Shown here piece after piece: positions 36,031-61,848 of a stretch of 64,000 nt of DNA; position 1 is the first letter of the stretch, and the number at the start of each line of letters is the position of its first letter. A program made the translations under genes and the position numbers. The notes under the pieces were generated by a model, which saw only the letters and a program-made list of their open reading frames with translations, did not search any database and was not told the DNA's origin. Origin of the DNA: a virus; the IMG/VR virus record IMGVR_UViG_3300032431_000003, positions 13,926 to 77,925 of that record. One strand, given 5' to 3'.

Positions 36031-36537
36031 CTATTTAGATGATCTAGCTTTTCTAAGTTGAAGTGCTTGAGCCGTTAGTTCGAGCCCTCTCTCCCTAAGT
36101 CCCAGTCCTCGATCTCTGATGTCCAGTCCCCTGTTGGCAGAGGCAATCCGACCGAGTACGCCCATCCTTCCCGTCCTACTTTTGCTTATTCGTGATCCAA
36201 TTCGAGAGGTTATATCCCCTCTCCTGAGTCCAGAATCGAGGAACCCTCCGACTAGACTTAGCCGACTTGATGACGGCACAGGTCTAGAGGCAATCTCACG
36301 AGCCATTCTGTATTTCTTGACCAGTTGAAAGTCCTTAGCTCCCCTAGCTACGTTGTAGTAAGCCTTGGTCAAATTGTTAGCCGAATTAGCCAGGTGAGTG
36401 GTTCTCAATACCGCCTTGTCAAGGGCTTCGCCAGCATTGAAGGGCACTGCGTTCCGCTTCCTCAAGGAGTTGCTAATCTTCCGCTTGTGAGCAGCCGATA
36501 GCTTCTTCCTGAATTCTGCGATGTAAGGAGTGTTCAT
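36031..36537 (-). CDS. basic protein with AEF leader and NUMOD3-like motif
   Basis: MNTPYIAEF|RKKLSAAHKRKISNSLRK. Confidence 0.7.
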   Translation of the reverse strand: MNTPYIAEFRKKLSAAHKRKISNSLRKRNAVPFNAGEALDKAVLRTTHLANSANNLTKAYYNVARGAKDFQLVKKYRMAREIASRPVPSSSRLSLVGGFLDSGLRRGDITSRIGSRISKSRTGRMGVLGRIASANRGLDIRDRGLGLRERGLELTAQALQLRKARSSK

Positions 36538-36896
36538 CTTTGCCTTGCTTTTTTATACCTTTGGAGCAGTCGAGTTCCCTTGTTAGCAATGACTCTGGCT
36601 TGAGCTTCTGTTCTAGGAACAGGCTCTCCCCAAGCCTTTGCCGTCAGAGCTAGACGTGTAGGGCGACCCTTTTTATCTACGAGAGGAGGTAGAACCTTTC
36701 TCCCATAGAATCGCCTAGCCCAAGAACCCTTTCTTCTCAGATCGGAGACCGTCATCTTCTTACCATGTCGCATAACCCCAGGGCGGAGTTTGCTGCCAGT
36801 CTTCTGTGCATAGTATTTTCGACCTGCGGGAGTTAGACCTCCATTCGGGCTGTGATACTTTGCGGCAAAATTAGCTAGCGACAGGTGCTGAGGCAT
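36534..36896 (-). CDS. basic protein (DUF6321-like) with ANF leader
   Basis: MPQHLSLANF|; GGLTPAGRKY..GSKLRPGV..RRKGSWARRF..D.KGRPTRLAL..KAWG motif recalled from phage proteins. Confidence 0.65.
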   Translation of the reverse strand: MPQHLSLANFAAKYHSPNGGLTPAGRKYYAQKTGSKLRPGVMRHGKKMTVSDLRRKGSWARRFYGRKVLPPLVDKKGRPTRLALTAKAWGEPVPRTEAQARVIANKGTRLLQRYKKARQR

Positions 36897-37149
36897 TGGC
36901 TTTCTTTGTAGGCGTAGATGCAGGAGTCGAAGTGTCGATGATTACCGCTTCAGCAGGGGGAACAACAACTTCGGGGAAAGCAAAGGACTGCTTTCTGCCG
37001 TTGTCATTGGTCAGGTATTCATCATTACGAAACTTCTCTGGGATTGCCTCTGCTCTGTAATAGCGATCCATGTCGATAGGGAACATGCACTGAGTAGCCA
37101 TATCCAATATCTGTTTCTTGACATAGACGGGTTTTGTTAAATCAAACAT
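36871..37149 (-). CDS. small head-associated hypothetical protein
   Basis: directly after the major capsid gene; GGAGG RBS. Confidence 0.6.
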   Translation of the reverse strand: MFDLTKPVYVKKQILDMATQCMFPIDMDRYYRAEAIPEKFRNDEYLTNDNGRKQSFAFPEVVVPPAEAVIIDTSTPASTPTKKANASAPVAS

Positions 37150-38295
37150 CTAAGCAGCCCTCCGTGCAAATAACAATTTAGGATTAGGGATTACTGGCAA
37201 CATTGTCGCAACGCCTTGAGTGGCATCACGAGGAGGGAACTTAGTAACTTCTCTAGTGACCACAAAGGGACCAGGGGCTCCTTCGTTTTCTAGGGTTGGA
37301 CCCATAGCTTGTTCGCCCATGCCTTGAGTCAAGAAGACGTAACGATCTGGGTTGAAGAAGCGCATTTTCCCACCACCATTAGGCAGGTTGTACATTTCAT
37401 CACAGATAATAATTGGGGGTAAGCCCATGTCTTCAAAGAGACGATCAAGCATGAGGTTGGAAACCACTCCCACATTGGAGACAACGACAGACGCTGCGGA
37501 GTTGGAGATCGAAGAGAATGAACGCTTCGTGGACTCTTGATTTCGCAAGTGAAGCCGCAACTTGTGGGACATGAGAATTGCCGTAGGCATGTAGCCGTTA
37601 GTGTCTCGGAAGACCTCTACGTCATTCTCTAAGTTTTGCAATCCATCGGCAGTGACGTATTGATTCCACGCTTGAGGAGTCGCAGTCAGATCGGGTGGAA
37701 AGTGAGCAAATTTGCCATTAGGGGCATAGCCATAGGTGGCATCGGCATCACGGTAGTCCAAGGGCAATCGAACACTGGTTCGAGTATCTTCGTAATTGAC
37801 GAAGCCAAACTGGACTGCTTGAGCCGCAATTAGATAATTAAGGTCAGTCAAGGCTCGTGCCATGTCAGCAATAGTGCCAAACAAGTAATCAGCCAAGGTG
37901 GAGTTAGCACCGGGGATGACTGCTCCATTGGGCAATACTTGTGACTGAACAGTTAGCCCTTTAGCCGAAGCCTTCTCAAGGGCTTCACGCATTTGCCATT
38001 GACGTTCTTCGGGGTAGTCAAAGGAAAGCCCAGCCTTGAATAGATCACCAGTAATCTTGTTGAATTTACCAACTTGAGTGGTTGGTAGTTCCGCACCATA
38101 GGCAACTAAGGAAGCCACTGGGCTTACCTTGTCCACCACGTAGGCGAGGAAGTCCCGCGTATCATACATTCGTGGAGGTAAGAAAGCATCAAGAGCCCGT
38201 TTTCGCTGATTAAGATAGTGGAGAGTGTCGTCCACCATAATGTTCGCTTCGGCAGCTTGTTGCTGTTCACTTAACCAGCTTGCAATTTGTCCCAT
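37150..38295 (-). CDS. major capsid protein (lambda gpE-like, HK97 fold)
   Basis: 381 aa; FLPP, ASLVAYGAE, PTAILMS, FFNPDRYVFL and ATMLPVIPNP motifs; GGAGG RBS. Confidence 0.85.
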   Translation of the reverse strand: MGQIASWLSEQQQAAEANIMVDDTLHYLNQRKRALDAFLPPRMYDTRDFLAYVVDKVSPVASLVAYGAELPTTQVGKFNKITGDLFKAGLSFDYPEERQWQMREALEKASAKGLTVQSQVLPNGAVIPGANSTLADYLFGTIADMARALTDLNYLIAAQAVQFGFVNYEDTRTSVRLPLDYRDADATYGYAPNGKFAHFPPDLTATPQAWNQYVTADGLQNLENDVEVFRDTNGYMPTAILMSHKLRLHLRNQESTKRSFSSISNSAASVVVSNVGVVSNLMLDRLFEDMGLPPIIICDEMYNLPNGGGKMRFFNPDRYVFLTQGMGEQAMGPTLENEGAPGPFVVTREVTKFPPRDATQGVATMLPVIPNPKLLFARRAA

Positions 38296-38303
38296 TTATC
38301 CTC

Positions 38304-39161
38304 CTAGAACCGTGTTCCGTATGTAATATTAGGGGTTGCGCGCTTGATACCCCCGTCAATATAGGGAAGGTTTTGTTCCCAAACGCCCTTAGCTCCAGTA
38401 ACTAAAGCCAAGGTCTTTTCAGGGTCCACAGTCCAGTCGGTTCCGAAGGGATGTAAACCACCAATCTGATCAACGTAAACCCCGACCTTGCCACCGACCG
38501 GAACGGGGTTCGTTGCCGAAGCCGTCAAGGTAATTAGGCTAGGATCAACCTCGTCAAACATAGAGATGGTTCCCACTGGGGTCTGAGCAGTCATGATTCC
38601 GTTAGCTGGGCTTCGAGTAACCGTGCCCCCAACCAAGGTAATAGTGTGGCAAGTAACTCCATCGCTGGAGAACAAGTGAACATTGGAGCCACTTGCTACA
38701 GCCCGAATCATGGAACTCAGGATGCCGCTTGCATTAATGAAAGCAGCCATTTCAGTTGCGGCATTCTGAACTGTGCTACCAAGAGTTCCCAAGAAGGTGA
38801 AGACGTGAGTGTTGCCAGCTACGGTAATGGCTACTGTAGCGTTGACCGCCAAGGCAGTAACTCCGAGCATCAGGTAGGGCTCAACAATTGTTAAGATATC
38901 GCCCACTTTGAATAGCTGATAGTTCTTCAGTTTTCCAGTAGTTCCCGTGATTGCCTGAGTAAGCTCAGTCCGAGGCAGGGGATGCCATAGATTGCCGATT
39001 CGAGCGAAGAATAACCCTGCGGGTAAGCTCCATTTTTTCCGTTCATTTAACTTAATTCGATCCCGGACAGCCGTGATCGACATCGTGGTGTCAACGCCAT
39101 CTACAAAGGCTAAAATTGGCAAGCCTTCGCCATAACGATCTGAGTGACGAACCCAAGACAT
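38304..39161 (-). CDS. head decoration/cement protein with internal insertion domain
   Basis: just upstream of the major capsid gene; LPAG near the N-terminus and EQNLP near the C-terminus; beta-rich insert. Confidence 0.6.
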   Translation of the reverse strand: MSWVRHSDRYGEGLPILAFVDGVDTTMSITAVRDRIKLNERKKWSLPAGLFFARIGNLWHPLPRTELTQAITGTTGKLKNYQLFKVGDILTIVEPYLMLGVTALAVNATVAITVAGNTHVFTFLGTLGSTVQNAATEMAAFINASGILSSMIRAVASGSNVHLFSSDGVTCHTITLVGGTVTRSPANGIMTAQTPVGTISMFDEVDPSLITLTASATNPVPVGGKVGVYVDQIGGLHPFGTDWTVDPEKTLALVTGAKGVWEQNLPYIDGGIKRATPNITYGTRF

Positions 39162-39166
39162 ACTTT

Positions 39167-40234
39167 CTACCTTCCAATGTTTTGTAGTCTCAATTCGGCA
39201 TTGCGCCGAGCTTGAGCTTGAATAGCATTTTCTTCAGCTTCCTCGTTGGGATTCAAGGGTTCATCGTAAGCGAAGGAATTGAAACTAATCATTCCCCCAC
39301 ATTTTTGAAACATTTCAAGGGTCTTCTGCATGGCATATAGCTCAGTGTCTAAACTGGAGCCATTTGATTGACATACAGAAGAAAATGCAGCCAACTGATC
39401 GTCTTGGCTCTCGAAGTTACCTAGGAGCTCACGGTGAACCACTGGAGGTAGCCATCCCTGATTGAACCCAGCATCGGCTAAACGATTTAGTTCGTTCAAG
39501 CGACTAGAGACCTCTTGCTGAACTTGAGCTTCAGTAAACTGAGCTTCTAATTCTTGCAAGCGGAAGTCCTTGTCTTGAATGGCTCTGGCGTAGCTTTCAA
39601 GGACTTCCTCGGTTTCGCCCTCGTCACCTTCGTCCTCTTCGTAATCGCCTTCTTCCATCGCATCATCCTCAGCCAAGACAAGCATCCCATTGAGGACTTC
39701 TTCGTCATTAGCCGAATCAAAGGCTTGAGCCAGTTCTAGTACGAGGTCTTGGTCTGGGATGTATTGCCCAACAAGGATTCCGGCAATAGATTCTGCATCG
39801 TAACCAGTGACTTCACAAAGAGCCGCAATGCCTTCTTCAAGGTCGCCGTAGTCTTCATTGATCAACTCCATCAGAGCTTGTCCAATCCCACTCTCAGAAG
39901 AACCACGAAAGAAGTTAGCAGTGTTTCCACCACGGGAATAATCCTCTTCGTCATCCTCTTCGTCGTCTTCGTCATCTTCATCGCCTTCTTCGAGTTCTAC
40001 GATTTGTTCGTATTCGTCGTAAGCTTGGGCACGAAGTTCTTGGGCTTCTTCGTAAGTCAGAAGTCCCTCTTCTTCGCCGTCATCAATGCTGTTGATGGTC
40101 GCTTCGTAAACTTCGTCGATGTTTTCAATGGCAGTGGCAAGAATCTCTTCTTCGGAGAGTTCTTCCTCTTGGTTGTCATCGTACTCATCGGCATATTGGT
40201 TTGCGTAGCGAGTTGGTCTTTCTTTTGTGTACAT
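39167..40234 (-). CDS. acidic scaffolding/prohead core protein
   Basis: 355 aa, extremely Glu/Asp-rich with coiled coil; upstream of decoration and capsid genes; AAGGAG RBS. Confidence 0.7.
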   Translation of the reverse strand: MYTKERPTRYANQYADEYDDNQEEELSEEEILATAIENIDEVYEATINSIDDGEEEGLLTYEEAQELRAQAYDEYEQIVELEEGDEDDEDDEEDDEEDYSRGGNTANFFRGSSESGIGQALMELINEDYGDLEEGIAALCEVTGYDAESIAGILVGQYIPDQDLVLELAQAFDSANDEEVLNGMLVLAEDDAMEEGDYEEDEGDEGETEEVLESYARAIQDKDFRLQELEAQFTEAQVQQEVSSRLNELNRLADAGFNQGWLPPVVHRELLGNFESQDDQLAAFSSVCQSNGSSLDTELYAMQKTLEMFQKCGGMISFNSFAYDEPLNPNEEAEENAIQAQARRNAELRLQNIGR

Positions 40235-40269: not shown

Positions 40270-40653
40270 TTATCTGTATTTCCGCTTCTTAGACCTCCGA
40301 ATCTTTCTACCAAGAGCCTTGGCTCCTCGGTAGGCTCCATAGCCAAGAGCAACGGTTCCCGCAGCTTTCAAGGCATTACTCGTACCACTCAAAACGCCCC
40401 CACCAACGGCTCCAGCAGCACCGCCTGCAACAGGGTTAAACCCCATCCCTTTTGCTGCGGCAGCACTCGCTGTTCCACCGATTATTCCACCCCTAAGCAG
40501 TCCCAGTCCTCCACCAGCGAGAGCCCCGTACTTGACTGCCTTACCTAGTCGGATACCTTTTCGGCTTTTCTTGCCACCCAAGGGAGAGGCAAATTCAGCC
40601 CGAAGAGGCTCGTCGTAATACATTGAGAAAGCTGCGTCCAGCATTGTGTACAT
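40270..40653 (-). CDS. leader-bearing cationic Gly-rich protein (cargo array member)
   Basis: MYTMLDAAFSMYYDEPLRAEF| followed by a K/R-rich core with a Gly-zipper segment. Confidence 0.8.
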   Translation of the reverse strand: MYTMLDAAFSMYYDEPLRAEFASPLGGKKSRKGIRLGKAVKYGALAGGGLGLLRGGIIGGTASAAAAKGMGFNPVAGGAAGAVGGGVLSGTSNALKAAGTVALGYGAYRGAKALGRKIRRSKKRKYR

Positions 40654-40665
40654 TGTTTACTCCTA

Positions 40666-41043
40666 TTAACCTTTAGTGCCTCTACGTCGTTTCAAGCCAA
40701 TCTTTCGACGAGCTCGATGTCCAGTAGCTTTGATAGAGCGAACAGCCCTGTAGGCTCCGTAGCCAGCAAGTCCTCCTGCTAGACCAGTTGCGGCTCCCTT
40801 TAGACTCTCCGAAGCTATTGGTCTGACCATTCCCTTCGCTACATCCGTTGGGCTCCGTCCAGCCTTTCTGCTGATGTATTGACGAGAAGCTTCACCGAGC
40901 CCAAGTCCAACGGCTCCCCCAAGGACACTATTGCGAATACCCTGCTTTAGAGCCCTTTTATTTTTCTTTGACATACCAAACTCAGCTTGGAGAGGCTCGT
41001 CGTAATACATTGAGAAAGCTGCGTCTAACATCGAATATTCCAT
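40666..41043 (-). CDS. leader-bearing cationic protein (cargo array member)
   Basis: MEYSMLDAAFSMYYDEPLQAEF|; start reassigned to 41043; 35 bp identical to the neighbouring leader (40604-40638 vs 40991-41025). Confidence 0.8.
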   Translation of the reverse strand: MEYSMLDAAFSMYYDEPLQAEFGMSKKNKRALKQGIRNSVLGGAVGLGLGEASRQYISRKAGRSPTDVAKGMVRPIASESLKGAATGLAGGLAGYGAYRAVRSIKATGHRARRKIGLKRRRGTKG

Positions 41044-41047
41044 GTCT

Positions 41048-41449
41048 TTATATCTTGGGGAATTTGAGTGCATTCTGGGCGGCAGTAACGTTGGCAGAGG
41101 CTCCAGCCTTGGCTCCAGCAAAGACTGGCTTGACTAGTCTAGTTCCCCTAGCCCCAGAAGCATAGGCTGTCTTGCCAGCACCGTAGCCACCCTTGCCTGC
41201 CCCGTGAAGCCCAGCCCCAATGACTGATGCCTTTATTGGGTTCTTGGCAACAAAGGCTCCGACTTTTTTGAGTTGCGTATTGGCAGCCCCAGCTAGCCGA
41301 CCAGCCCCTCGCCTAGCCAAGAGAGCGGCGCGTTTCGCCTTCCTCCCTGCCCGACGAAGAAATCCTCGCTTACCAGGGGGAGCAGCGCCTTCGTTGAAAT
41401 TGGCGGAAGCGTAGAGTTCGTGGGCTGAGTCGATTAGTGTGTATGCCAT
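41048..41449 (-). CDS. leader-bearing cationic protein (cargo array member)
   Basis: MAYTLIDSAHELYASANF|; start reassigned to 41449 with AAGGA RBS. Confidence 0.8.
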   Translation of the reverse strand: MAYTLIDSAHELYASANFNEGAAPPGKRGFLRRAGRKAKRAALLARRGAGRLAGAANTQLKKVGAFVAKNPIKASVIGAGLHGAGKGGYGAGKTAYASGARGTRLVKPVFAGAKAGASANVTAAQNALKFPKI

Positions 41450-41462
41450 GTTGATCCTTGAT

Positions 41463-41822
41463 TTATCGGGGCATTCTTTGACTATTTCTGAAGTTCTTGG
41501 CAGATTGAACGGCTTGAGCCCTATTGGTGGACTTTGGACTGTTGGCAACTCGCTTAGCTACAGAACCCGCATAAAGTCCACCAGCCCCAAGAGCTAAAGC
41601 CCCGCCAGCCCCAAGAGCCACCTTACCCTTGTTTCGCATGGCAACTCCGCCAGCCCTTCGAGCTAAAGACCCTGCGCCTCTACCTGCTCGTCCAGCCATC
41701 TGTCCAGCCCGTCCTGCAAAAACTTTAGCTTTTCGCCCTGCCTTACGAAGCATTCCTGCCTTAGAGAATTCTGCTTCGGGGTAGTACATTTCGTAAGCGG
41801 CATCTAATAATGTGTAAGCCAT
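41463..41822 (-). CDS. leader-bearing cationic protein (cargo array member)
   Basis: MAYTLLDAAYEMYYPEAEF|SKAGMLRKAGRK. Confidence 0.8.
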   Translation of the reverse strand: MAYTLLDAAYEMYYPEAEFSKAGMLRKAGRKAKVFAGRAGQMAGRAGRGAGSLARRAGGVAMRNKGKVALGAGGALALGAGGLYAGSVAKRVANSPKSTNRAQAVQSAKNFRNSQRMPR

Positions 41823-41843
41823 CTGCGGTTTCCTCTGTTTCGT

Positions 41844-42119
41844 TTATTTTTTGCGGAAGGGGTTCATTCGTCGAAGCCCACCGCCAATGTCCTTTTTAAT
41901 CCGTTGACCAACTCCGTAGGCAAAGGCTTCATCGGGAGCACGGGGTTGTCGTTTTCGAGGCTTTGTTTCTCGGTGCATCGCTCTTTCCCCAGCGTTGAGG
42001 TATCGATACTTTGCTGCCTTGAGCCTCGTCTTAACTTTCTTGAATGTCCGCTTACCCATTGCAAACTCAGCTTTCTGGGGGCGAAATTCAAGTGCAGATT
42101 CTAGTAGTGTGTATGCCAC
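41844..42119 (-). CDS. leader-bearing cationic protein (cargo array member)
   Basis: GTG start with GGAGG RBS; MAYTLLESALEFRPQKAEF|AMGKR. Confidence 0.8.
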   Translation of the reverse strand: MAYTLLESALEFRPQKAEFAMGKRTFKKVKTRLKAAKYRYLNAGERAMHRETKPRKRQPRAPDEAFAYGVGQRIKKDIGGGLRRMNPFRKK

Positions 42120-42134
42120 TTGTTTCCTCCCTGA

Positions 42135-42452
42135 CTATCTTCTTCGTGGAAGAGCTCTTCGTGCAACCTTGTCAGTGCTCATCTCTCTCATCAGCCCTCT
42201 CATTTCGGGGGTTTGGCGAAGCATTGCTCCTCCACCCTTATTCCACCGCTTAGCCGCCGCTTCCGTTCTGCCTGTCTTGTACCCTAGCCTGAAGTTTTTC
42301 TTATATTTCTTAGCCTTCATTCCACCTAGCCGGGCGTAACTCTTGGCTTTCCGACCAACTCCGCTAAGCGCAGCCCTACCTCTGTCTAGCAATCCGAATT
42401 CTGCTTCGGGGTAATACATTTCGTAAGCTGCATCTAATAATGTGTAAGCCAT
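42135..42452 (-). CDS. leader-bearing cationic protein (tandem duplicate of 42502..42819)
   Basis: MAYTLLDAAYEMYYPEAEF|GLLDRGRAA; AAGGAG RBS. Confidence 0.85.
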   Translation of the reverse strand: MAYTLLDAAYEMYYPEAEFGLLDRGRAALSGVGRKAKSYARLGGMKAKKYKKNFRLGYKTGRTEAAAKRWNKGGGAMLRQTPEMRGLMREMSTDKVARRALPRRR

Positions 42453-42501
42453 CTGTGGTCTCCTTAGTCGTGTTTATTTTTGCGGGTTAGTTTCTCTCTG
42501 G

Positions 42502-42819
42502 CTATCTTCTTCGTGGAAGGGCTTTTCGCCCAACCTTGTCGCTGCTCATCCCTCTCACAGCCGCCCTAACGTCGGGGTCTATCCGAAGTATTGGTCCCCC
42601 AGTCCGATTCCACCGCTTAGCCGCCGCTTGCGTTGCACCTGTCTTATACCCTTTCTTAAAGTCTTTCTTAGCTTTCCTAGCCTTCATCCCGGCTAGACGG
42701 GCGTAACTCTTGGCTTTTCGACCAACTCCGCTAAGCGCAGCCCTACCTCTGTCTAGCAATCCGAATTCCGCTTCGGGGTAATACATTTCGTAAGCTGCAT
42801 CTAATAATGTGTAAGCCAT
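42502..42819 (-). CDS. leader-bearing cationic protein (tandem duplicate of 42135..42452)
   Basis: same leader and length; 367-bp duplication period. Confidence 0.85.
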   Translation of the reverse strand: MAYTLLDAAYEMYYPEAEFGLLDRGRAALSGVGRKAKSYARLAGMKARKAKKDFKKGYKTGATQAAAKRWNRTGGPILRIDPDVRAAVRGMSSDKVGRKALPRRR

Positions 42820-42845: not shown

Positions 42846-43904
42846 TTAACGTTTGCCAGGTCGAAATGTCGAAAGAGAAGACGAACCCAGGGTTCTTGCC
42901 GTTACATCGACAGTTTTCTTGCCAGCGGGAACGCTAGATTCCTTCTTCCTCAGTGCATCTCGATACCTTGCACCTTGAATTAAATTGTGTCCTGTCTTGT
43001 ACAGTCCCAACGCAAGTACCGTAGAGCGGATGGGGTTTTGAGCCATAGTCTTGAGTTCTCGCCCTATCACCCGACCAGCGGCTCCGGCTCCCCTTCTCAG
43101 TCCTCGACCAGCTCTTCTTCCCCCAATCTTCGCTTTCCTCAAGACTCTAGATTCCGATCTCTTGAAGTCAATTACTGAAGATCGGGATCGAAGTCTTCGT
43201 TGATTAAATCGAACGACTCCTCCTCTACTAGCTCGAAAACCAAGCCATCTTTTCCGAGTGGCTATATCTCTAGCAGCCTTCTCTTTAGCCCAGTTCTTGC
43301 CCTTCTCGATTGCACTACCTGCCACCTGGGAAGCCTTACTAGTCAACTCTCTTCTTTTTGCTATGTCCTCTTCGGCAATTCCCTTGAGTGCTTGCTTGAC
43401 ATTCTTTAGAACAGGCTTCGCTTTTCTTCTCACCAGTCGAACACCAGCTTCAACTCTCTTGCTTTTCTTTTGAGTCCAAATCCCGACATTCTTCTTGACT
43501 CCTTTGACGGTCTGAACAGCCTGCCCTGTTAGCTCTTTTCTCTTCGCAATGTCCTTGGTAGCTCTGTTGTTGCCCCAGTCTTTTGCCTTTTGGATTTGCT
43601 GATTGGTTTGCTTCTGGACTTGTTGATTGGCTCCCACAGGGATACCCTTGCCGAATTCCTCTCCAGCAGTATTAAACCCCTGCTTTACCCTTTTCCCCGA
43701 TTCATTCTTGATGGCGGAAATAGTTGCCCCAATTTTCTTGCGGTTCAAGTAAAGCCCAGCGGCTCCAGCGGCAGCAAGGCGAGTCCCCATCCCTTTCTTT
43801 GTCCTGCCTATAGCAAGCCTGCCTATCCGCTTTAGTCCAGCCCTAACTTTGCCGGACTTAAATTCAATTCTGTCGGGGGTAATGTCACCCATTACTACTA
43901 GCAT
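42846..43904 (-). CDS. long cationic protein with IEF leader, possible polyprotein
   Basis: MLVVMGDITPDRIEF|KSGK; internal VVRF and VIDF motifs; DIA(K/T)R(K/R) repeated three times. Confidence 0.75.
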   Translation of the reverse strand: MLVVMGDITPDRIEFKSGKVRAGLKRIGRLAIGRTKKGMGTRLAAAGAAGLYLNRKKIGATISAIKNESGKRVKQGFNTAGEEFGKGIPVGANQQVQKQTNQQIQKAKDWGNNRATKDIAKRKELTGQAVQTVKGVKKNVGIWTQKKSKRVEAGVRLVRRKAKPVLKNVKQALKGIAEEDIAKRRELTSKASQVAGSAIEKGKNWAKEKAARDIATRKRWLGFRASRGGVVRFNQRRLRSRSSVIDFKRSESRVLRKAKIGGRRAGRGLRRGAGAAGRVIGRELKTMAQNPIRSTVLALGLYKTGHNLIQGARYRDALRKKESSVPAGKKTVDVTARTLGSSSLSTFRPGKR

Positions 43905-44837
43905 TTATCTAGCCCTCCGTCCCGAAGCCCTCTTCAGTATTTTGGCAAAATTAGCCAATTTACCTGCATTGGCGGACATCTTTGCTTGAGACAAGTCTTG
44001 CTGCCTTGTGACGTAGCTAGGGTCTTGCATCCCACTCATTCCTGGGTAGCCATCGGGGGCATCTTCGCCACCATCTAATCCCAAGAGTTCAGCGAGACGA
44101 TCCGAGAGACCACCAATGGCATCTTCGACAAGCATCGCTGGGTCTTCGCCCATCAAGGTTGATTCGTCTGCCTGAGAAATACAGGTAACAATCTCCCAGA
44201 ATTTCTCAGTGATTTCTTCGTACTGTTCCTTGAGTTCGTCGATTTGGGTTTGCTCCTCTTCTGCATCATCCCAAGTCAGCGAAAAACGAGCATCACTGTT
44301 GTGCTGCCTGAAAATACTCAGTCCAACAATGGCTGGCTGAGGAGTTGCCGAGATTTCCTTGATAGTATTCGTAGCTACATCGATACCGGGAGAAAGAGTC
44401 TTGATTCTTCCCGACATTACCTGAGCTACAATATCTTCGCCCTTGGCTACTAACTGCCCAAAAGCTCCCAACTTACCGACCAGCTTTCTTAGTCGGGGAT
44501 TAGGAAGGTCATTTTCAGTAATGATGCGGATTTCCAACTCGCCTTCTAAGTCACCAATGTTGGCACTCTGAGTCTTGTCGTGGTCTTTTTGCCAAGGGAT
44601 TCTGCCGCCAGCCCGAAGGAAGGCATTGGTTTTCTCAACTAAATCACGAAGTCTTTCTTGGGAGAAGGTGTGGGGTCGCTTCTGGGAGTCGTGGTGATTG
44701 CCTTCAATCATCAGCAAGGCTTCCTTGATTAGAACACCGTCTTCTTGGTCTTCTTCGGCAAAGCTGGCGGGAGTAAGCCCCAGTCCAAATGGGGAAAGAA
44801 ATTCTAGTCGTTTTGACCGAGGTTTTGGTTTGGGCAT
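43905..44837 (-). CDS. prohead maturation protease (Mu gpI-like) with acidic C-terminal domain
   Basis: IPWQKDHD..ANIG (His), IKTLSPGI (Ser) and ISATPQPAIVGL motifs of herpes/U35-fold phage proteases. Confidence 0.75.
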   Translation of the reverse strand: MPKPKPRSKRLEFLSPFGLGLTPASFAEEDQEDGVLIKEALLMIEGNHHDSQKRPHTFSQERLRDLVEKTNAFLRAGGRIPWQKDHDKTQSANIGDLEGELEIRIITENDLPNPRLRKLVGKLGAFGQLVAKGEDIVAQVMSGRIKTLSPGIDVATNTIKEISATPQPAIVGLSIFRQHNSDARFSLTWDDAEEEQTQIDELKEQYEEITEKFWEIVTCISQADESTLMGEDPAMLVEDAIGGLSDRLAELLGLDGGEDAPDGYPGMSGMQDPSYVTRQQDLSQAKMSANAGKLANFAKILKRASGRRAR

Positions 44838-44949: not shown

Positions 44950-45180
44950 CTACTTCATCCGAGGTTTGGAAAGGTGCTTGAGAGTGCCTAGCCGAGGAAT
45001 AACTCGACGATAGGAATTGGGTATCTTGGGCAAAGTATTCTTCGCTCTCGTCGCTGCCTTGCCTAGTTTCCTGAGACGACCTCGAATATGCCCTGTCTTT
45101 TGGAGCTTTGTCATCCCCGTTGGCATCTGAAGCTCTGCGTATTTCGTTGCAAACTCAATGAGACTATTGTAGTGATTCAT
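44950..45180 (-). CDS. small basic protein with IEF leader
   Basis: MNHYNSLIEF|ATKY..., K/R-rich remainder. Confidence 0.65.
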   Translation of the reverse strand: MNHYNSLIEFATKYAELQMPTGMTKLQKTGHIRGRLRKLGKAATRAKNTLPKIPNSYRRVIPRLGTLKHLSKPRMK

Positions 45181-47062: not shown

Positions 47063-48147
47063 TTATCGATGACACCCCCGAAAACTGTGAAGCTCTAGCG
47101 ATGAATCTCGATGCCCTGGGTATGTCCAGTGAATCAAGGATAGTCGCTTACTCAATAGACAAAGGGCTGGAAGCCATTCAAGAGTTCCCCAGTATTCGGA
47201 CTATTTTGCTTGATCTTCGATTGCCGGGGATAAAGATGGGCGAAGTAGTCGGCAAGGTGCAGGAAGTGTTGGAATTGTGTGGAAATACTAAGGCAGTCAT
47301 CATTCCCATCTCAGTAGGATCAACGAACCCTTCCGTTGTCAATACCACGGAAATCGCTAATTCTATAACAGGCCCAAAAGCGTTGTCGAAAGTGCTGCAA
47401 ATAGCCGACAACCATGTAGAGCAGAACATATCAAGGGAAGATAGGGAGGACATTCGAGGTGGGGCAACAAGGCTAGAGGGAAAGGTTGAGAAGATAGAAG
47501 CAATGCTCTTGGCTTTCAAGGAAGAAAACAGGGAGTTAAAACTTGAATTAAAGGAAGTCAAGTCCGTCTTGCTTGCGCTCAAGATGGTAGTAGATGATCC
47601 CCTACTTCTATGGAAGCTAATCCTTCGACACCCCGCAATTCAAGTAGCCGTAATAGCAATTGTTATCAGCAATATGGATTCAATGTTCGAGGCGTGGCAG
47701 AAAGCCAAGAAACTTTGGGACTCAGGGGCAGAAAACACTAGCCATCTGTCTCGCAATGTTGTCGCCCAGTCCTTCAAAGAGCCTACCGTCGTCGAGTCCA
47801 ATGACCAAAAACCCAACCTCGCAATTTACCGCAGCAACTCCACTTTCTTGCAGGGCTCCATCAACAATGGTGATTGGCGCAATCCGACTTCCCCGCTCTC
47901 CAGTTGTAATCTTGGCTGGATCGACAAGGATAAAGCGAGTGTCGGACAGAAATATCCGAACCTCGCCACTACCCTGAGCACACGATGCCATGTATTCATT
48001 GGGTACTTGGGAGCCAACAAGAGAAAGCAGCCTACCTCGATAACCTACGAGTCTTGCTTCCGAGCTTGGGGCGACCCTCCGCATCTGATCTACGATACCG
48101 ACGGCTCCTGTCCAGTTTTGGGAGCAAACGGCGACCTGAAGGCGTGA
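47047..48147 (+). CDS. receiver-domain protein with coiled coil and hydrophobic helix; C-terminal ~140 aa antisense to another gene
   Basis: ILIIDD and ILLDLRLPG motifs; coiled coil; IQVAVIAIVIS segment. Confidence 0.7.
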   Translation: MPSILIIDDTPENCEALAMNLDALGMSSESRIVAYSIDKGLEAIQEFPSIRTILLDLRLPGIKMGEVVGKVQEVLELCGNTKAVIIPISVGSTNPSVVNTTEIANSITGPKALSKVLQIADNHVEQNISREDREDIRGGATRLEGKVEKIEAMLLAFKEENRELKLELKEVKSVLLALKMVVDDPLLLWKLILRHPAIQVAVIAIVISNMDSMFEAWQKAKKLWDSGAENTSHLSRNVVAQSFKEPTVVESNDQKPNLAIYRSNSTFLQGSINNGDWRNPTSPLSSCNLGWIDKDKASVGQKYPNLATTLSTRCHVFIGYLGANKRKQPTSITYESCFRAWGDPPHLIYDTDGSCPVLGANGDLKA

Positions 48148-48198
48148 ATTTAGATTCGACGTGTTGATCGATGCGAGTAAAACTAGCTCTGGAATCAT
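47722..48198 (-). CDS. hypothetical protein of cyanobacterial type
   Basis: LQVAVCSQNW..AVGIVDQM...P....L.GYRGRL helical motif recalled from cyanobacterial hypothetical proteins. Confidence 0.55.
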   Translation of the reverse strand: MIPELVLLASINTSNLNSRLQVAVCSQNWTGAVGIVDQMRRVAPSSEARLVGYRGRLLSLVGSQVPNEYMASCAQGSGEVRIFLSDTRFILVDPAKITTGERGSRIAPITIVDGALQESGVAAVNCEVGFLVIGLDDGRLFEGLGDNIARQMASVFCP

Positions 48199-51100
48199 GG
48201 GGAATGGTGAATGTGGCTAAGGTTTTTCTGACCAAGAACTGAGAGAGTCGATCACTTTGGGAGAATCCGATCTGGAGTAACCCAAGCTCTATTGATTCTA
48301 ACTCAGTCCGCCGCCGACCAAGGAGAACTCGGACACCAGAGTAGTTCTTCTCCGAAACGTTGAGTGGACTATCCACTTCGTCAATGCCCAGTATCCCTCT
48401 TAGCTCCGCCAAGGGCTTGCCCAACCTCGCTTCCGCCGCAGGGATTCCTCCTCGAAAACGATCAGGGTTGTCAACGTAGCGGGGATTCGACAAGGTGATT
48501 CTAGAGGGAAAGGATAGTCCAGCCGCAGTGTCTTCGGTTACGGACACGTCAACTTGGAAGCCCGTCTTTACTCGAATGTCTTCAACCTTGCTCAAGACTT
48601 TACCCCAAGCCTTGCCTCGAAGTCCTTCAAGTCTATTAACTTCGGCTATGGCTTTGTTTCGAGCAAAGAACAGTTCCAGTCCACCGCTTCTTTGAGCCGC
48701 AACGACAACATCGATCTCTCCTTGAGTTAACCTCTGAATATATTCATGCTCCGCAGAAGTAAGTTGACCACCCGATACGTGCTTATTGATAATTCCAAGG
48801 GCGGACTTTTGATTCACAGAAGTCAATAATCCCCTATGAGCCAAGGAGGTAACTGTGTTTCGGTCTTGGCTAACCAGGCTACTTGCCTTTGTAGCCGACC
48901 TTGCCTGAGCTATGTTTTCCTTGAGTTCCGCCGTAGTCTTCGCTACCCCGCCAATGCTGACGGGCTTGGCTATCTCTGCTTCAATCAACCGTTTAGCCTC
49001 TTGAAGCTCAGTAATAGTCTGGCTTGATTTAGCCAAGTAAGTAGCTTGCTTCTTCTTGATCTCATTGCGAATCTCTGGCGCAACTTCGGTGTAGTAGTTC
49101 AGATGAGCGTCCCTCAGTCCCGTGGTCTGAATTGTCCCATCAGGTCTCCTGACTCCTTCGAGCCCTTTCTCAATCTTGGCAGCGTAATCATCGAAAGCTT
49201 TTAGTCCTGCCTGCTGGTTAGCAATCTCTTGAGCAAGAGCGGTGTCTGCCTTCTCTAGTAGTGGAGCAAGGTTCCTAGTCTTGGTGTCGTAATCAATGAC
49301 CCTTTCTAAAGTAGGGATTGCCCCGACCTTTGTGACAACTCCATTGACTACTACTTCTTTTTCCAGCTTGTTTCTGACGCTCTCGAAGATGCGCCTACGA
49401 AAGGCGGCGGCACTCTCCGCACCGATAGCAGACTTACCTGCCGAGCCAAGTCCAGCAATGATTTCTGGATCGTTGATCGTATCAATGACTCTTTGCATGT
49501 TACGAAACACGTAGTCAGCCCCTTCTGGTCCAGAGACAAGACTGAGCAAAGAAAGATTGTCGTTAACGGTTTTCTGGGCTGAAGACAAACCCATCGTTGC
49601 GGTTCTCTCAATGCCGGACAATTCCTCCTGGAATAAAGTCGTCCCATCCGTTCGGGGACGAAACTTGTCAAGAACTGTCTCAGCGTTGGAATTAACTCGA
49701 ACCCCTTCACTCTTCGCTAGCTCCCGGAGATTCTCTAGCGGCGGACTGATCCTCTGAAGAGCAACGTTTCTTTGCTTGTCATCCCCAAAAGTCTGCTTGT
49801 ACCTCTTGGACTGGAGGGCAGACAAGTCACCTTTTTTCTTTGGCAATTTCTGTAAATCTTTCAGCATTGCCTTTAGTTGATCTCTCGAATTAGCTAAACG
49901 AGCCAATGTATCTGGCTGATTTGCTCTAGCCAAGCGAGAAATAGCTGCCTCAGTGGCCGCTAATTGAGAGTTGATACTTTGAACTAATGGAACGTCATCT
50001 AGCGAGGGAATACCGAAATCATTATTGCCAGAAGCCCTGATCTGCGCCCTGACCTCGCCAAGCTGAGAGTTCATTGCTCTCTGTTGCTCAGGGGTAAATT
50101 TAGCCAATTCCGCAGAAGTTAGCCCAAAAGCGGGTAACTCTAGCTGGCTTCCCGCCTCACCCAACTGGGTCTTGAGTCGATGAACTCGTCCCTGGACTTC
50201 TGGCGTGTTGATCAGTTCAGAGTATTCTTTGACCACCCCGTTACGGATAGCCAATAACTGATCCCTTTTTACTTCCATCTCTCTTTGCCTTACCGATGCT
50301 GCCGACTCAGGAATTCCGCCTCGTCCGGGTCTAGGATCGGGAACGAAGGAGTCTTTGAGTTGCTTGTCAATATCGGAGATTTCCTTGGACAACCGAGCAA
50401 TATCTTTTTGGTAGGCGGGGGAGAGTACGTCCACGGGCACAAGGTCTCCGGTCTGCGAACCCAATGCTTCGGCGTAGCTAGCCTTAATTTTCTCCGCTTT
50501 CGTTGCCAATTCAACGACCGTATCTTGAGTAGTGTTAGCTAACCTACTAAGCCTCTCGGCAATAGCCTGTTGTCCTCGTGCAACTTTGATAGCAGCGTTT
50601 GCCTTGGTCTGAGCAGGTCGAGTATTTAATCTACTTCCGGGAACGCTCACCGCACTACCAAAGACTCTGGATTGTAAATCGGTCTTAAGCTGATCCACCT
50701 CCGTCAATACTTGCTGTTGAGCAGAAAGAGCTTGCCGAGTCTTTACGGGGAGCATTCTACTGATATCAGCCCTTTTTAGATCGCTTTGGGGAGTGATGGC
50801 TCCAATAGCAGCTTCCCCTAGGAGACCTGAAACATTGCTGACGATGGTTCCGGGGTCGGCAATCTTTGACCTTAGAGTCGATTCAAAGATTTGCTGTACC
50901 GTGCGCTGAGGAACTGTAACAGCCTTAGATGGCTCAAGGAATGACAGTTCTCTTGGGTCTAAAAGGATAGGTTTTACGGGCAGGGATATCGATGATTCTG
51001 TTTTTGGTGTTTCGGATACTTTCTCTACAAAAGCTCGGACTAAAGCATCGAAAGCTGGGTTCCCGATATCTTTTCCCGTAGCAGCTAAACGATCCCGCAT

Positions 51101-53380
51101 TACTTGCATCCCTTCCCACTCCCCGTCTTTGTGGGCTTCCACGATTCTCCGAGCAATAGCCATCGAAACCCCTGCTCGATCAGAGATTTCCTTGGCGGCT
51201 CTCTCTGTGGGACCTTCGACAGCGATGAGTTCGTTGATGTTGATCCGAGCTAGTTGCCCACCCTTGACAATCCGGTCAACCGTCTTCGGTCCAACCCCCT
51301 TGATGGATCGAAGCATTTCAGTCAGTTCTTCCTTGGTCTTTGGTGGAGTCCGTGATATTAGTTGGACAATGCTTTGAGCCAAGGATTCTTTATTGGTACT
51401 CCCTGCTGGAAGTAGTCCAAGCCAATCGGATTGCCCCATCTGGCTTACTTCAAGTCCGCCAATCTCGACCTCTCCTCGCTCAGGGATGGCTAGTTTTGCT
51501 CGAAGTTGTCTTCTAATGTAATCATCTAAAGCATTCCCCTTCTCCCTTGACCCAGTGATTCCAATGAGTTGATCAAGGGAGAGTTGGCGGACATCGGGGT
51601 ACTGCATTAGTTCTGGATACAGTCGAAGCAAGCTGTCGGGAAGGAGCCTTTGGGCTGGAGCTACCTGAGACAAGGGTGCTGTCATTCGCTGCTGAAAAGC
51701 CTTCATCTCCTTTCTCAAGGTTTGAACTTGCCATTGAGTCAGTCCGTGAACTTTCTGTAACTGACCGTCAGTTACTCCATTCAGGTTCACGTTCTGAGTG
51801 GCTAGTCGGTAGAAAGAAGGCTGCTCTTGTAGCTTCAAGGAGATGACGCTGGAGGACATCGGGGGAATCTTTGCTGCCACTGATGCTCTTTCGGACTGAG
51901 TTTCCTTCTCTCTGAGGTATTCAACTGCCTTGCTCAATGCTTCGGACTCAATGCCCTGAGCAACATTGCTACCTATGTCAGAGATACCGGGGATACCGGA
52001 GCCCTGGGGTTCCCCGGACGACCTTGACTTCATCTCTTTGCTGAACTCATTGAGTAACAAGTAAAGCCCACCTAGCCCCAAGGTAACTCCGGCTCCTATG
52101 GTGAGTGCCTTGATTAGCATTGCTCTCCGAGACCTCGCTGCCAACATCTCGGCTCGTCTAGCTTGGACTGCGGCAACTCCAGCTTGAATCCCTGCGTTAA
52201 TTCCGCCTCTTATCCCAGCCTGAATGCCAAGACCAATACCCACTCCTAGAAGTGCCCTGCTTTTAGTCCATGCCTGAGCGATAGGAGATACCTTGGCTCT
52301 TGCGGGGTCTAAGTTGGGGTCTTTGTCGTCCTCACGATCTCGGTTGTCGTTGTCATCAACGGGTTCAAAGTGGCATCGACAATGGGGATGAGCGGGAATG
52401 ATGAACTGGCTAGCATCGAAGCGATTGTTGCCTTGAGCTAAGAGTTCATTAATATTTAAGATCATTCCATTCCTGTCGCCACAGATAGCGCAAGCTCCTC
52501 TATCCAAGTTCACCCAGCGAACTTTTCTGACATCGGCTTGAAGATAAGTATTGAGTCGCCCCATTGAATAAGCTGCCGATAATTCAGTCGAAGCAATTCT
52601 TCGGGCTGCGGAGGAAGCACGGAACTGTCGATCAGATATCTCCTTGGAAGTCTCAGGATCGATCTTCTCCTTGCTTCTCTCCATGTTCCCGTAATCTCTC
52701 ATGCCAATGGGATCGACGGCGTATCTAATCTCATCGAATAACTGCTTCTTGGCAAGCTCCGGCATCCCCTTGTCTGTTCGATGTCTCTGGATCGACTTAT
52801 TTATAGAGGTGATGACTTGGGATTGGACACCGCCCTCGTAGCCCCTTGCTACAGCCTGTCCTCTGGCTATAACGGCTTCACTAAGCACAGAGCGAGACAA
52901 GGGCATCCCGTAGTTTGGTGGATAAACTACCATGAAAGGATTACTCTTTGCCTTGACAGTTCGAGCCGATACAGGGTCTTTCTCTTCTAGAGTAGAACTG
53001 TCTTCTCCGGCAAATTCTGCTCTTGACCTTTGCTTCGAGACTCTCTGTTGCAAAGTGTTCAACTCCCGTGTGGCATCCGATGAACCCACACTCCACATTT
53101 CTCTCCATCCCGCATAGATAAGCTCCTCCACTCCACTCCCCACTCGCCAAGGAACAGCAGCAATAGCTTCAGGAGTAGCCTTGTCTAACATTGGAGCGAT
53201 CTTCTTGAGATAAGCCTTGGTTTCTTTACCAGCCAATTCATCGACACTCCGAGATAGCCAGTTCTCCCAGTAGTCGTGCTGCTCATGGATGGTTTGAGAT
53301 GGCAAAATTGTTCTGGGTAAAGAATTGTCTTTCGTGGCAAAGTTAGAGATAATAGGAGAGAAAACGGAATCAAAAGCCAT
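48032..53380 (-). CDS. giant MuF/SPP1 gp7-family minor head protein with TM, helix-hairpin-helix and coiled-coil extension
   Basis: RRIASTELSAAYSMGR...VRW...ACAIC..RNG...PAHPHCRC (MuF); hydrophobic segments; LRSIKGVGPKTVDRIV (HhH); start uncertain (53380, 53416 or 53443). Confidence 0.8.
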   Translation of the reverse strand: MAFDSVFSPIISNFATKDNSLPRTILPSQTIHEQHDYWENWLSRSVDELAGKETKAYLKKIAPMLDKATPEAIAAVPWRVGSGVEELIYAGWREMWSVGSSDATRELNTLQQRVSKQRSRAEFAGEDSSTLEEKDPVSARTVKAKSNPFMVVYPPNYGMPLSRSVLSEAVIARGQAVARGYEGGVQSQVITSINKSIQRHRTDKGMPELAKKQLFDEIRYAVDPIGMRDYGNMERSKEKIDPETSKEISDRQFRASSAARRIASTELSAAYSMGRLNTYLQADVRKVRWVNLDRGACAICGDRNGMILNINELLAQGNNRFDASQFIIPAHPHCRCHFEPVDDNDNRDREDDKDPNLDPARAKVSPIAQAWTKSRALLGVGIGLGIQAGIRGGINAGIQAGVAAVQARRAEMLAARSRRAMLIKALTIGAGVTLGLGGLYLLLNEFSKEMKSRSSGEPQGSGIPGISDIGSNVAQGIESEALSKAVEYLREKETQSERASVAAKIPPMSSSVISLKLQEQPSFYRLATQNVNLNGVTDGQLQKVHGLTQWQVQTLRKEMKAFQQRMTAPLSQVAPAQRLLPDSLLRLYPELMQYPDVRQLSLDQLIGITGSREKGNALDDYIRRQLRAKLAIPERGEVEIGGLEVSQMGQSDWLGLLPAGSTNKESLAQSIVQLISRTPPKTKEELTEMLRSIKGVGPKTVDRIVKGGQLARININELIAVEGPTERAAKEISDRAGVSMAIARRIVEAHKDGEWEGMQVMRDRLAATGKDIGNPAFDALVRAFVEKVSETPKTESSISLPVKPILLDPRELSFLEPSKAVTVPQRTVQQIFESTLRSKIADPGTIVSNVSGLLGEAAIGAITPQSDLKRADISRMLPVKTRQALSAQQQVLTEVDQLKTDLQSRVFGSAVSVPGSRLNTRPAQTKANAAIKVARGQQAIAERLSRLANTTQDTVVELATKAEKIKASYAEALGSQTGDLVPVDVLSPAYQKDIARLSKEISDIDKQLKDSFVPDPRPGRGGIPESAASVRQREMEVKRDQLLAIRNGVVKEYSELINTPEVQGRVHRLKTQLGEAGSQLELPAFGLTSAELAKFTPEQQRAMNSQLGEVRAQIRASGNNDFGIPSLDDVPLVQSINSQLAATEAAISRLARANQPDTLARLANSRDQLKAMLKDLQKLPKKKGDLSALQSKRYKQTFGDDKQRNVALQRISPPLENLRELAKSEGVRVNSNAETVLDKFRPRTDGTTLFQEELSGIERTATMGLSSAQKTVNDNLSLLSLVSGPEGADYVFRNMQRVIDTINDPEIIAGLGSAGKSAIGAESAAAFRRRIFESVRNKLEKEVVVNGVVTKVGAIPTLERVIDYDTKTRNLAPLLEKADTALAQEIANQQAGLKAFDDYAAKIEKGLEGVRRPDGTIQTTGLRDAHLNYYTEVAPEIRNEIKKKQATYLAKSSQTITELQEAKRLIEAEIAKPVSIGGVAKTTAELKENIAQARSATKASSLVSQDRNTVTSLAHRGLLTSVNQKSALGIINKHVSGGQLTSAEHEYIQRLTQGEIDVVVAAQRSGGLELFFARNKAIAEVNRLEGLRGKAWGKVLSKVEDIRVKTGFQVDVSVTEDTAAGLSFPSRITLSNPRYVDNPDRFRGGIPAAEARLGKPLAELRGILGIDEVDSPLNVSEKNYSGVRVLLGRRRTELESIELGLLQIGFSQSDRLSQFLVRKTLATFTIPHDSRASFTRIDQHVESKFTPSGRRLLPKLDRSRRYRRSDAEGRPKLGSKTRRLSR

Positions 53381-53837
53381 GACCATAAAATCTGCTACCG
53401 GGACTCCTAGCCGCATGAGTAGTACGGGGATTGCTACAAACATAACAACTACCCACAGTTATCTTAACGAGATTATGGAACTACTGATAAACAACGAGTT
53501 CTATCGCAATGAAGACATTCCTTGCCGAACAACGACAACAACTTCTAGTTACGATGCCAGCGATCCAACAACTTCGATCAATGGCACAATCTTGCAACTA
53601 ATTATCGTTGATGGGACAACGGGAACTCCGGCTCCCTTGGTAACAAGAACAATGACTATTACTTATAATTCCGACTCTGAAGTTCGAGGATTTGCAAAGC
53701 TGGCTATAGCTGACCTTGCCACTCTACCAGTCAACTCCACTGTCACCCTAGAATACCGAGTGTGGGCTACCTTTCCCGGATCAGTCCGTAATCTTGTAGA
53801 GCGAGGCACGTTTAAGTCTAAGCCAGCATTGCTCTAA
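53379..53837 (+). CDS. BppU-like beta-rich hypothetical protein
   Basis: EFYRNED...LEYRVWATFP...LVERGTF; start either 53379 or 53475. Confidence 0.55.
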   Translation: MTIKSATGTPSRMSSTGIATNITTTHSYLNEIMELLINNEFYRNEDIPCRTTTTTSSYDASDPTTSINGTILQLIIVDGTTGTPAPLVTRTMTITYNSDSEVRGFAKLAIADLATLPVNSTVTLEYRVWATFPGSVRNLVERGTFKSKPALL

Positions 53838-59477: not shown

Positions 59478-59697
59478 TATTTTTGGTAGAAGCAGTTGTG
59501 AGTAAGTAAACCAGTGATTAACACCGAGAGAAACACGAGGGGAAAGAAAACTAGGTCTGGAGCGTTAAACAGCTTGCATCCGGCAGATGCTGTCATTCCA
59601 GCAAAGGAGCCAATGACAATCGATGTCTTTACTGCTACCTGCTCCTGCTCCTTCGCCTTTACTAGTAACTGGAGATACTGACCTTCGATGGGGTCTA
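59477..59697 (-). CDS. two-TM reading frame lacking a canonical upstream start
   Basis: LDPIEGQYLQLL...FFPLVFLSVLITGLL..QK*; stop overlaps the next ATG (TAATG). Confidence 0.4.
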
Positions 59698-60240: not shown

Positions 60241-60241
60241 T

Positions 60242-60604
60242 TTAATCTCCAAACGGGTTGATGTTGTTTTCTTTGAGCTTTTGTAAGTGCTGCTCGACAC
60301 TGTAGTTCAAGGTAGATCGAAGGTAACTATCTAGGCGTTCCCAGAGGGTCAAGGATTGCTCCCCGCAGAAGACCTCCTCAATGAAGACGTTCCCTGTTAG
60401 TCTTAGTCCCCATCGCCTGTTCGTTGCAAGATGATAACAATCAAGTTGAGCGATCTGGTCTTGAGTAAAATAACTGTCCTTTCTTTCTGTTGGGAGTCCC
60501 AGCGCAACCCTCCATCTATATATGGTTGATCGATTGACCTTGTATCTTTTTTCTGAGAGTTCCTTGAGACTAAACTCAAGATTAATAACTGGTAGCTCTT
60601 TCAT
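60242..60604 (-). CDS. HTH DNA-binding protein (MerR/excisionase-like)
   Basis: SLKELSEKRYKVNRSTIYRW...FTQDQIAQL; start at MKELP. Confidence 0.65.
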   Translation of the reverse strand: MKELPVINLEFSLKELSEKRYKVNRSTIYRWRVALGLPTERKDSYFTQDQIAQLDCYHLATNRRWGLRLTGNVFIEEVFCGEQSLTLWERLDSYLRSTLNYSVEQHLQKLKENNINPFGD

Positions 60605-60667
60605 TTTGTTTCGGCATCGATTTCTCCTAACGAATTTGCGTGGTTTCAGCCTGTTTTTCGTAATTCG

Positions 60668-60775
60668 TGCAACATACAGAGGACATCCTCGCACTGTGCA
60701 ACGTAGATGCAACATGAATGCGCTCTCGTTGCATCTACTGAAATTAATATAAAGCCACCCCTCATGGGATGGCAA
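60668..60775 (-). promoter_or_regulatory. promoter with downstream TGCAAC operator-like repeats
   Basis: TTGCCA-N18-TATATT on the minus strand; TGCAAC at 60668, 60697 and 60708; inverted repeat GTAGATGCAAC/GTTGCATCTAC at 60703-60738. Confidence 0.5.
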
Positions 60776-60822
60776 TAGATGGACTACATTTTTGGAATAC
60801 ATAACTATTACACCTGTAATAG

Positions 60823-61227
60823 TTAACCTGAACTCTCCTGCCGTCTCTTCTTCTGGGGAGGAGGAACTCGGTAACGAGGAACGCTATCAGACACCAGCAG
60901 AAAACGAAGGATAATGTCGAGGGAACCCAAGAATGCTTCGAGAACCAATGGGTACTTACCTTCAAAAGAGTTAGGATTGCCCTCTCGATTAGTCCATCTC
61001 CATTTCTGGTATGCAGTCTCTGAGTCCGTTGCAGTCCAACGAACGTTCATTACTCCTTTGTCTATAACCAAGTCAATGCAGCAAGCCTTGTAGAATGGGT
61101 CGCCACAGTAAACTCCGTAGATCAAGGGAATCCACTTCTCAAAGAAAACTTGGGGATGCAGTGTTCCTGTCGCTGGGCTCTGGGCTAAAACTTCTTGATA
61201 GGTTGGTCTCTTCCTTGTCTCTAGCAT
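60823..61227 (-). CDS. hypothetical protein
   Basis: ATG at 61227 (MLETRK); start uncertain. Confidence 0.5.
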   Translation of the reverse strand: MLETRKRPTYQEVLAQSPATGTLHPQVFFEKWIPLIYGVYCGDPFYKACCIDLVIDKGVMNVRWTATDSETAYQKWRWTNREGNPNSFEGKYPLVLEAFLGSLDIILRFLLVSDSVPRYRVPPPQKKRRQESSG

Positions 61228-61295
61228 ATTTGGAACTACGGTAAGGTGGTCGGGACAATGGTAGCACAACCCAACCTCGAATAGCATTCTCAACG

Positions 61296-61331
61296 CAAGA
61301 TACCCCGACTATTTCTAATCAGGGTATCTTG
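61296..61331. terminator. stem-loop directly 3' of the tRNA-like element
   Basis: CAAGATACCC / GGGTATCTTG inverted repeat. Confidence 0.5.
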
Positions 61332-61333
61332 TT

Positions 61334-61458
61334 TGCGTGGACAGGATTCGAACTCTGCGGCAGGCGTACTTCTAGGTATCCGTCCCCATTACGCCCAACT
61401 AGACGGTGGTATCCTTACTCATTCGGATTTCAGCTTTAATCCAGACTCGGCAACACGC
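61334..61458 (-). ncRNA. tRNA-like structured RNA with non-canonical central domain
   Basis: GCGTG/CACGC acceptor-like stem, D-loop-like CCGAGTCTGGATTAA and T-loop GTTCGAATC; promoter TTAACA-N18-TAAGAT upstream. Confidence 0.55.
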
Positions 61459-61521
61459 TATCCCACATCTTATCATTAACCGAGAGTTTCTGTTAAAATT
61501 AGCAAAAAAAGGAGCGAAGAA

Positions 61522-61848
61522 ATGCTTACCCTTGGAGACTTTTCAATTTCAGAATTCCGCCAGTTCGGGGCTAAGAACAAGCACAAAAAAATACCTGCCG
61601 TTCCGTTAAAGAAGACAGGCATCTTGGACAAGTGGAGAAAGAGGCTAAAAGGAAAACCAATGAAGGTGTACCTAAAAGGAACTGGAGGAAACAAAAGAAA
61701 GCTGTACTCCGTTGGTGGGCACTTGCGTAAAAGCCATTATGTTGTTGGCAGAACGGGATGGTATGGCAGTGGGGGAATGAATGAACTCAAAGGTACAGCT
61801 AAGCGTAGAGCAAGGAGAGTCCTTCGATCTCAGGGTGGAATACTTTAA
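61522..61848 (+). CDS. basic protein with ISEF leader
   Basis: AAGGAG RBS; MLTLGDFSISEF|RQFGAKNKHKK; TGTTAAAAT promoter at 61491. Confidence 0.7.
   Translation: MLTLGDFSISEFRQFGAKNKHKKIPAVPLKKTGILDKWRKRLKGKPMKVYLKGTGGNKRKLYSVGGHLRKSHYVVGRTGWYGSGGMNELKGTAKRRARRVLRSQGGIL

Follow-up and report, generated by a model that had tools for sequence, protein, structure and literature searches.

The stretch of DNA analysed here (the window, 64,000 nucleotides) comes from an uncultured cyanophage-like virus. Gene order in the window, as in related genomes, runs MuF protein, protease, cargo array, scaffold, decoration-like gene and major capsid protein (MCP); the protease gene lies in the head module, beside the scaffold and capsid genes. 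A portal protein of the Mu type (16149–17609, plus strand; PF06074, E 1.9e-13) indicates that the head module is Mu-like, and the phage is long-tailed, with a tape measure protein of 2606 residues. The MCP (381 residues; 37150–38295, minus strand; PHROG 29, E 5.5e-23) is 30% identical to the capsid proteins of PA-SR01 and of the cultured relative Pam2. A scan of its 381 residues found no A-[ENQ]-F; residues 4–7 read IASW instead, and the N-termini of its homologues carry A-x-W (L003, L005 and L014), T-S-W (L012) or IEAF (PA-SR01).

The prohead protease (310 residues; 43905–44837, minus strand), assigned from an assemblin-like fold model and a family alignment, comprises a catalytic domain (residues ~33–167), a helical scaffold-like domain (residues 189–252) and a basic tail past F297. 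The catalytic domain is predicted to adopt the fold of T4 gp21 and the herpesvirus assemblins. Core residues 33–167 of the AF2 model have a pLDDT around 90, and VIA-align matches the model to T4 gp21 (5jbl_A) with a Z of 9.1 and an rmsd of 3.0 over 122 residues, and to the VZV protease with a Z of 7.5. Herpesvirus proteases are the top Foldseek rows, at a probability of up to 0.98 and an E no better than 0.019. From the family alignment, His86 (kept in 158 of 158 members) and Ser149 (161 of 161) probably match the invariant catalytic His and Ser of assemblin-fold prohead serine proteases; Glu161 is invariant too. A sequence-only reading of this DNA had placed Phe motifs at the domain boundaries of the protease, and the model bears this out: the four candidate self-processing sites of this assemblin-fold protein, RLEF13, PASF26, DARF185 and LANF297, all have their Phe (F13, F26, F185 and F297) in disordered segments with pLDDT below 50.

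Phage Mu, with its gpI protease and nested gpZ scaffold, resembles this system: the head module includes a Mu-type portal and a MuF protein, and the protease has a C-terminal helical scaffold-like domain. A difference is that HMMER does not match the protease found here or its relatives to Pfam Mu-like_Pro (PF10123): hmmscan gave no match at E <= 1 for 22 members (this protease and 21 relatives), and a six-frame search of the contig gave none. The PA-SR01 homologue has been assigned to Mu-like_Pro by HHpred (E 4.5e-18; PMC10286775). The literature searched did not give a cleavage specificity for Mu gpI.

The acidic scaffold protein (355 residues, 98 of them Asp or Glu; 39167–40234, minus strand) has A-x-F sites at F108 (TANF), F233 (EAQF) and a LAAF↓S sequence. 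The giant MuF-domain protein (1803 residues; 48032–53443, minus strand), with PF04233 at residues 265–359 and matches to PHROG minor head protein families, has candidate sites after F35 (ISNF) and F144 (RAEF). F144 aligns with AEF, ALF and EGF of L005, L009 and L010, and a leader of the form FDSVFS...F↓A is common to this phage, L005 and L010. A Gp80-like head-fibre protein (282 residues; 34541–35389, minus strand; PF23140, E 3.8e-23), whose N-terminus reads MAEGISQPLAANF, is a candidate substrate of lower confidence; its L014 homologue has Tyr at the motif position.

The remaining motif-bearing genes encode cationic proteins with short N-terminal leaders. Next to the protease gene lies that of a cationic protein of 352 residues (42846–43904, minus strand), for which no Pfam or PHROG family was found; a 15-residue leader ending in RIEF is followed by KSGKVRAGLKR, with a charge switch at residues 14–15. 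Beyond it, an array of seven genes (40270–42819, minus strand; 42502–42819, 42135–42452, 41844–42119, 41463–41822, 41048–41449, 40666–41043 and 40270–40653), delimited from translations and motif positions, encodes small cationic proteins. Each has an acidic/aromatic leader of 18–22 residues ending in AEF or ANF, with the charge switch 0–7 residues from the Phe. The same layout of leader, Phe and basic body occurs in the relatives L005, L009, L010, L012 and L014.

A basic DUF6321 protein (120 residues; 36534–36896, minus strand; PF19846, E 5e-25) begins with the 10-residue leader MPQHLSLANF, and the PF19846 match spans residues 15–89, that is, it begins past the leader. The syntenic gene of L005 has only the leader (MPRYSKLANF) in common with it. 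A basic protein of 168 residues (36031–36537, minus strand) has the 9-residue leader MNTPYIAEF; in eleven homologues AEF and RK.LSAAH.RKIS are conserved and leader residues 2–6 vary. The leader MNHYNSLIEF of a small basic protein (76 residues; 44950–45180, minus strand) has an M-x-H-[YF] start similar to the M-x-H-F-A-N-F leaders of Pam2 and PA-SR01. Finally, a dispersed basic protein of 108 residues (61522–61848, plus strand) has the leader MLTLGDFSISEF; a homologue 46% identical to it conserves the Phe and, starting at RKFGAKNK, the body, with a leader that ends in VASF and is set apart by an indel. The leaders are thus modular, with the same leader on genes for unrelated bodies and, among homologues, a constant Phe and body behind a variable leader.

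All the motif strings that the sequence-only reading had quoted from the protease, the scaffold, the MuF protein and three of these leaders are present where it located them. Its proposal that [AISL][ENSDRQ]F marks head proteins holds in part. This broad pattern is enriched in the head block (21 matches vs 8.8 expected, 0 of 2000 shuffles), but outside it the count is at chance level (73 vs 73.8 expected), so the pattern is too loose to be more than a poor predictor on its own. The narrower and useful form of the motif, in this genome and its relatives, is A-x-F, mostly A-[E/N/Q]-F. The comparison of head with non-head genes that had been proposed comes out clearly for A-[ENQ]-F, with 12 matches in the head block vs 1.46 expected (0 of 2000 shuffles) and no excess in the rest of the genome (5 vs 8.0 expected). 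Seven of the 12 matches come from the single paralogous array, and collapsing the seven paralogues to one leaves 6 vs 1.12 expected (14/20000). Ten proteins, in four independent groups, have the motif within their first 30 residues (1.2 expected), and their genes all lie within 34.5–42.8 kb. An unbiased ranking places AEF or ANF in the top three over-represented tripeptides of the window's head block; in the remainder of the genome neither ranks high. The residue preceding Phe varies (E, N, Q, S, R, D, K, A or T); Phe is the invariant residue. A Phe-centred test confined to the 64-kb window, with paralogues collapsed, found Ala at P3 of 12 of 71 Phe, which is marginal (p = 0.055), and the case therefore draws its strength from the relatives.

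Four of seven relatives (PA-SR01, L005, L010 and L012) likewise have AEF or ANF in the top three tripeptides of their head regions, and for PA-SR01 the two are the most over-represented of all. In an alignment of 22 proteases (33–80% identity), Phe is retained at the pre-domain site of 16 of 18 sequences, at the post-domain site of 15 of 21 and at the pre-tail site of 19 of 21 (plus one Tyr); P2 is variable and P3 mostly Ala. Across 163 family representatives, A.F occurs 344 times outside the catalytic domain (145 expected). Only Phe shows this coupling to Ala at P3: Ala occupies P3 of 22% of Phe vs 5–12% for other hydrophobic residues. The strict-column Phe frequency drops to 44–62% in the wider family, part of which may therefore rely on different residues or sites. 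Some protease homologues have a cargo-like Gly/Ala/Lys/Arg tail fused directly behind A-E-F. When the scaffold is aligned with five relatives, Phe occupies the F108, F233 and LAAF columns in four or more of the six sequences, and every one of the six has the A-x-F↓S site. In Pam2, the scaffold gp18 carries [AS][ENQ]F at six places, and at five of these the form is A[ENQ]F. Together these comparisons support A-x-F as a conserved and functional signal of the head module.

The virion proteins of Pam2 have been determined by mass spectrometry (PMC9382816 Table S2, which records presence or absence only). Of the eight Pam2 ORFs whose first 25 residues contain A-[ENQ]-F, seven are MS-positive (Fisher p = 3.9e-6); the eighth is the protease. 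Five of the seven are encoded far from the head genes; the earlier proposal, that the motif would pick out head-interior proteins wherever their genes lie, is thus borne out in Pam2 for virion proteins. A[ENQ] ahead of L, I, V, M, Y or W showed no association with Pam2 virion proteins, and neither the protease nor gp18 was detected in the virions by the published mass spectrometry. In Pam2, then, leader-bearing proteins are present in virions, as in T4-type cargo systems. Three of their genes (gp41, gp42 and gp44) sit among tail genes, so the tagged proteins may lie elsewhere in the virion than inside the head.

The Phe motif most likely marks cut sites of the head protease, and A-x-F (most often A-E-F or A-N-F) is quite probably the recognition site of the phage's own assemblin-fold prohead serine protease. 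Head-interior proteins would carry an N-terminal leader of 9–22 residues ending in A-x-F, which would address its protein to the assembling prohead. Once the head is assembled, the protease would cut after, rather than before, the Phe, at sites with Ala at P3, any residue at P2 and, as a rule, a small or basic P1'. Such cuts would strip off the leaders, divide the acidic scaffold into pieces able to exit the shell and trim the protease itself at four linkers. We infer that the cargo lies inside the head, where the freed cationic bodies would remain with the DNA.

Among prohead proteases of the assemblin fold, that of HK97 cuts after Lys and those of herpesviruses after Ala. Those of T4, phiKZ and SPN3US are Glu-specific, so the contrast that the sequence-only reading drew with T4 gp21 and phiKZ gp175 is correct, and their sites follow a P3-x-P1 pattern (A-x-E in SPN3US and phiKZ, L/I-x-E in T4; PMC5694885). 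The P3-x-P1 pattern here, with a small P1' (Ser), has the same grammar. The proposed scheme resembles the T4-type capsid-targeting-sequence system in its short N-terminal leaders on internal basic proteins (10–20 residues in T4, 9–22 here), in the single short motif that leaders, scaffold and protease appear to share, and in the predicted gp21-like enzyme fold. It differs in the proposed P1 (Phe, against Glu in T4) and P3 (Ala, against Leu or Ile); the protease also lacks sequence similarity to gp21, and the head module, as known from sequence, is Mu-like on a long-tailed phage. With an invariant Phe in place of the Glu of the T4-type cleavage motif (L/I-x-E or A-x-E), the system would work like the T4-type ones and yet be a variant. 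The motif of phiKZ gp175 and SPN3US gp245, (S/A/G)-x-E, also has Ala at P3, a free P2 and a small P1' (Ser), with Glu rather than Phe at P1. Their proteases process their own C-termini as well as numerous internal or ejection proteins, among them families of paralogues (PMC5694885, PMC10052503). These are jumbo myoviruses with propeptides often >100 residues long, in contrast to the short leaders and small, strongly cationic bodies found here.

An uncleaved docking signal is an unlikely alternative reading of the same data; here leaders and linkers would be held by their Phe in a hydrophobic pocket on the capsid shell, scaffold or portal, and tagged proteins would co-assemble uncut at these sites. 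Binding would explain all the targeting evidence (the leader layout and the Pam2 virion link) equally well, 80alpha assembly depends on the scaffold's N-terminal peptide, cut or uncut (PMC5744158), and the PA-SR01 MCP has been inferred to be near full length (a 47-kDa band vs 416 residues; PMC10286775). However, the motif also occurs at inter-domain linkers of the protease and at several scaffold positions, as in self-processing proteases and degraded scaffolds; tagged cargo is found in Pam2 virions, from which protease and scaffold are missing; and known sites of enzymes of the same fold likewise have a P3-x-P1 form and a small P1'.

Cleavage after Phe by another enzyme, either a host protease or a second phage protease, seems less probable still. 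It has a precedent in the host protease Prp, which cuts F↓A where basic residues follow, both in ribosomal protein L27 and in two head proteins of phage 80alpha, capsid and scaffold (PMC5744158, PMC9405229), removing an N-terminal peptide of 13–14 residues and leaving small and then basic residues after the cut. Several leaders here read F↓A-R/S-K-K-G or similar, the host of the contig is only inferred, and about 71% of the genome is all that the contig covers. However, F↓A followed by basic residues is the only part that the leaders have in common with the Prp sites: the extended Prp motif, (D/N)LQ(F/L)F↓A(S/H)KK (PMC9405229), was not found in leaders of this phage or its relatives, the upstream (D/N)LQ part being missing. 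Prp is a Cys-His protease encoded by hosts among the Firmicutes and a few other phyla, whereas the candidate here is a phage serine protease. Searches for Peptidase_Prp (PF04327) gave no match in this contig (at about 71% completeness), in the complete PA-SR01 and Pam2 genomes or in the L005 contig, and none in a sample of 101 genomes from across the cyanobacterial phylum, with Bacillus, Lactococcus and Thermotoga controls positive. The motif in the protease's own linkers is, moreover, what autoprocessing would predict. Given Prp, cleavage of phage head proteins after Phe has a precedent; what would be new is an assemblin-fold enzyme, encoded by the phage, with specificity for Phe.

That the motif has no function, and reflects chance, composition or recent duplication of one leader cassette, is scarcely credible: the array supplies most of the tight matches and the broad pattern is at chance beyond the head block, but the excess survives collapsing, is replicated by tripeptide ranking in four independent relatives, recurs at aligned positions of proteases, scaffolds and MuF proteins, and is accompanied by a Phe-specific Ala coupling and a Pam2 virion association for Phe and not for the other hydrophobic residues.

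Returning to cleavage by the phage's own protease, we consider it likely on balance that a clade of Mu-like-headed cyanobacterial siphoviruses has an assemblin-fold prohead protease with a P1 specificity shifted from acidic to aromatic (A-x-F↓), together with a portable capsid-addressing leader. In public data the proteases of the clade form about 240 clusters at 50% identity. Its portable leader is 7–26 residues long and is found on otherwise unrelated, mostly cationic proteins. A Phe-specific branch, if true, would widen the specificity range known for the prohead-protease fold, and gp21 and the Phe-specific enzyme would form a natural pair for studying how an S1 pocket is retuned. The packaged proteome could then be read from sequence alone, by the presence of an N-terminal leader with A-x-F at its end; the rule already sorts the MS-positive proteins of Pam2 and would allow virion cargo to be listed from sequence in poorly annotated freshwater cyanophages. 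The T4 targeting sequence has already been used to package foreign proteins into capsids, and an A-x-F leader is a possible short tag for packaging foreign proteins into these. The cargo itself is unusual, consisting of many small, very basic, Gly/Ala-rich proteins, for which DNA condensation or ejection are possible roles.

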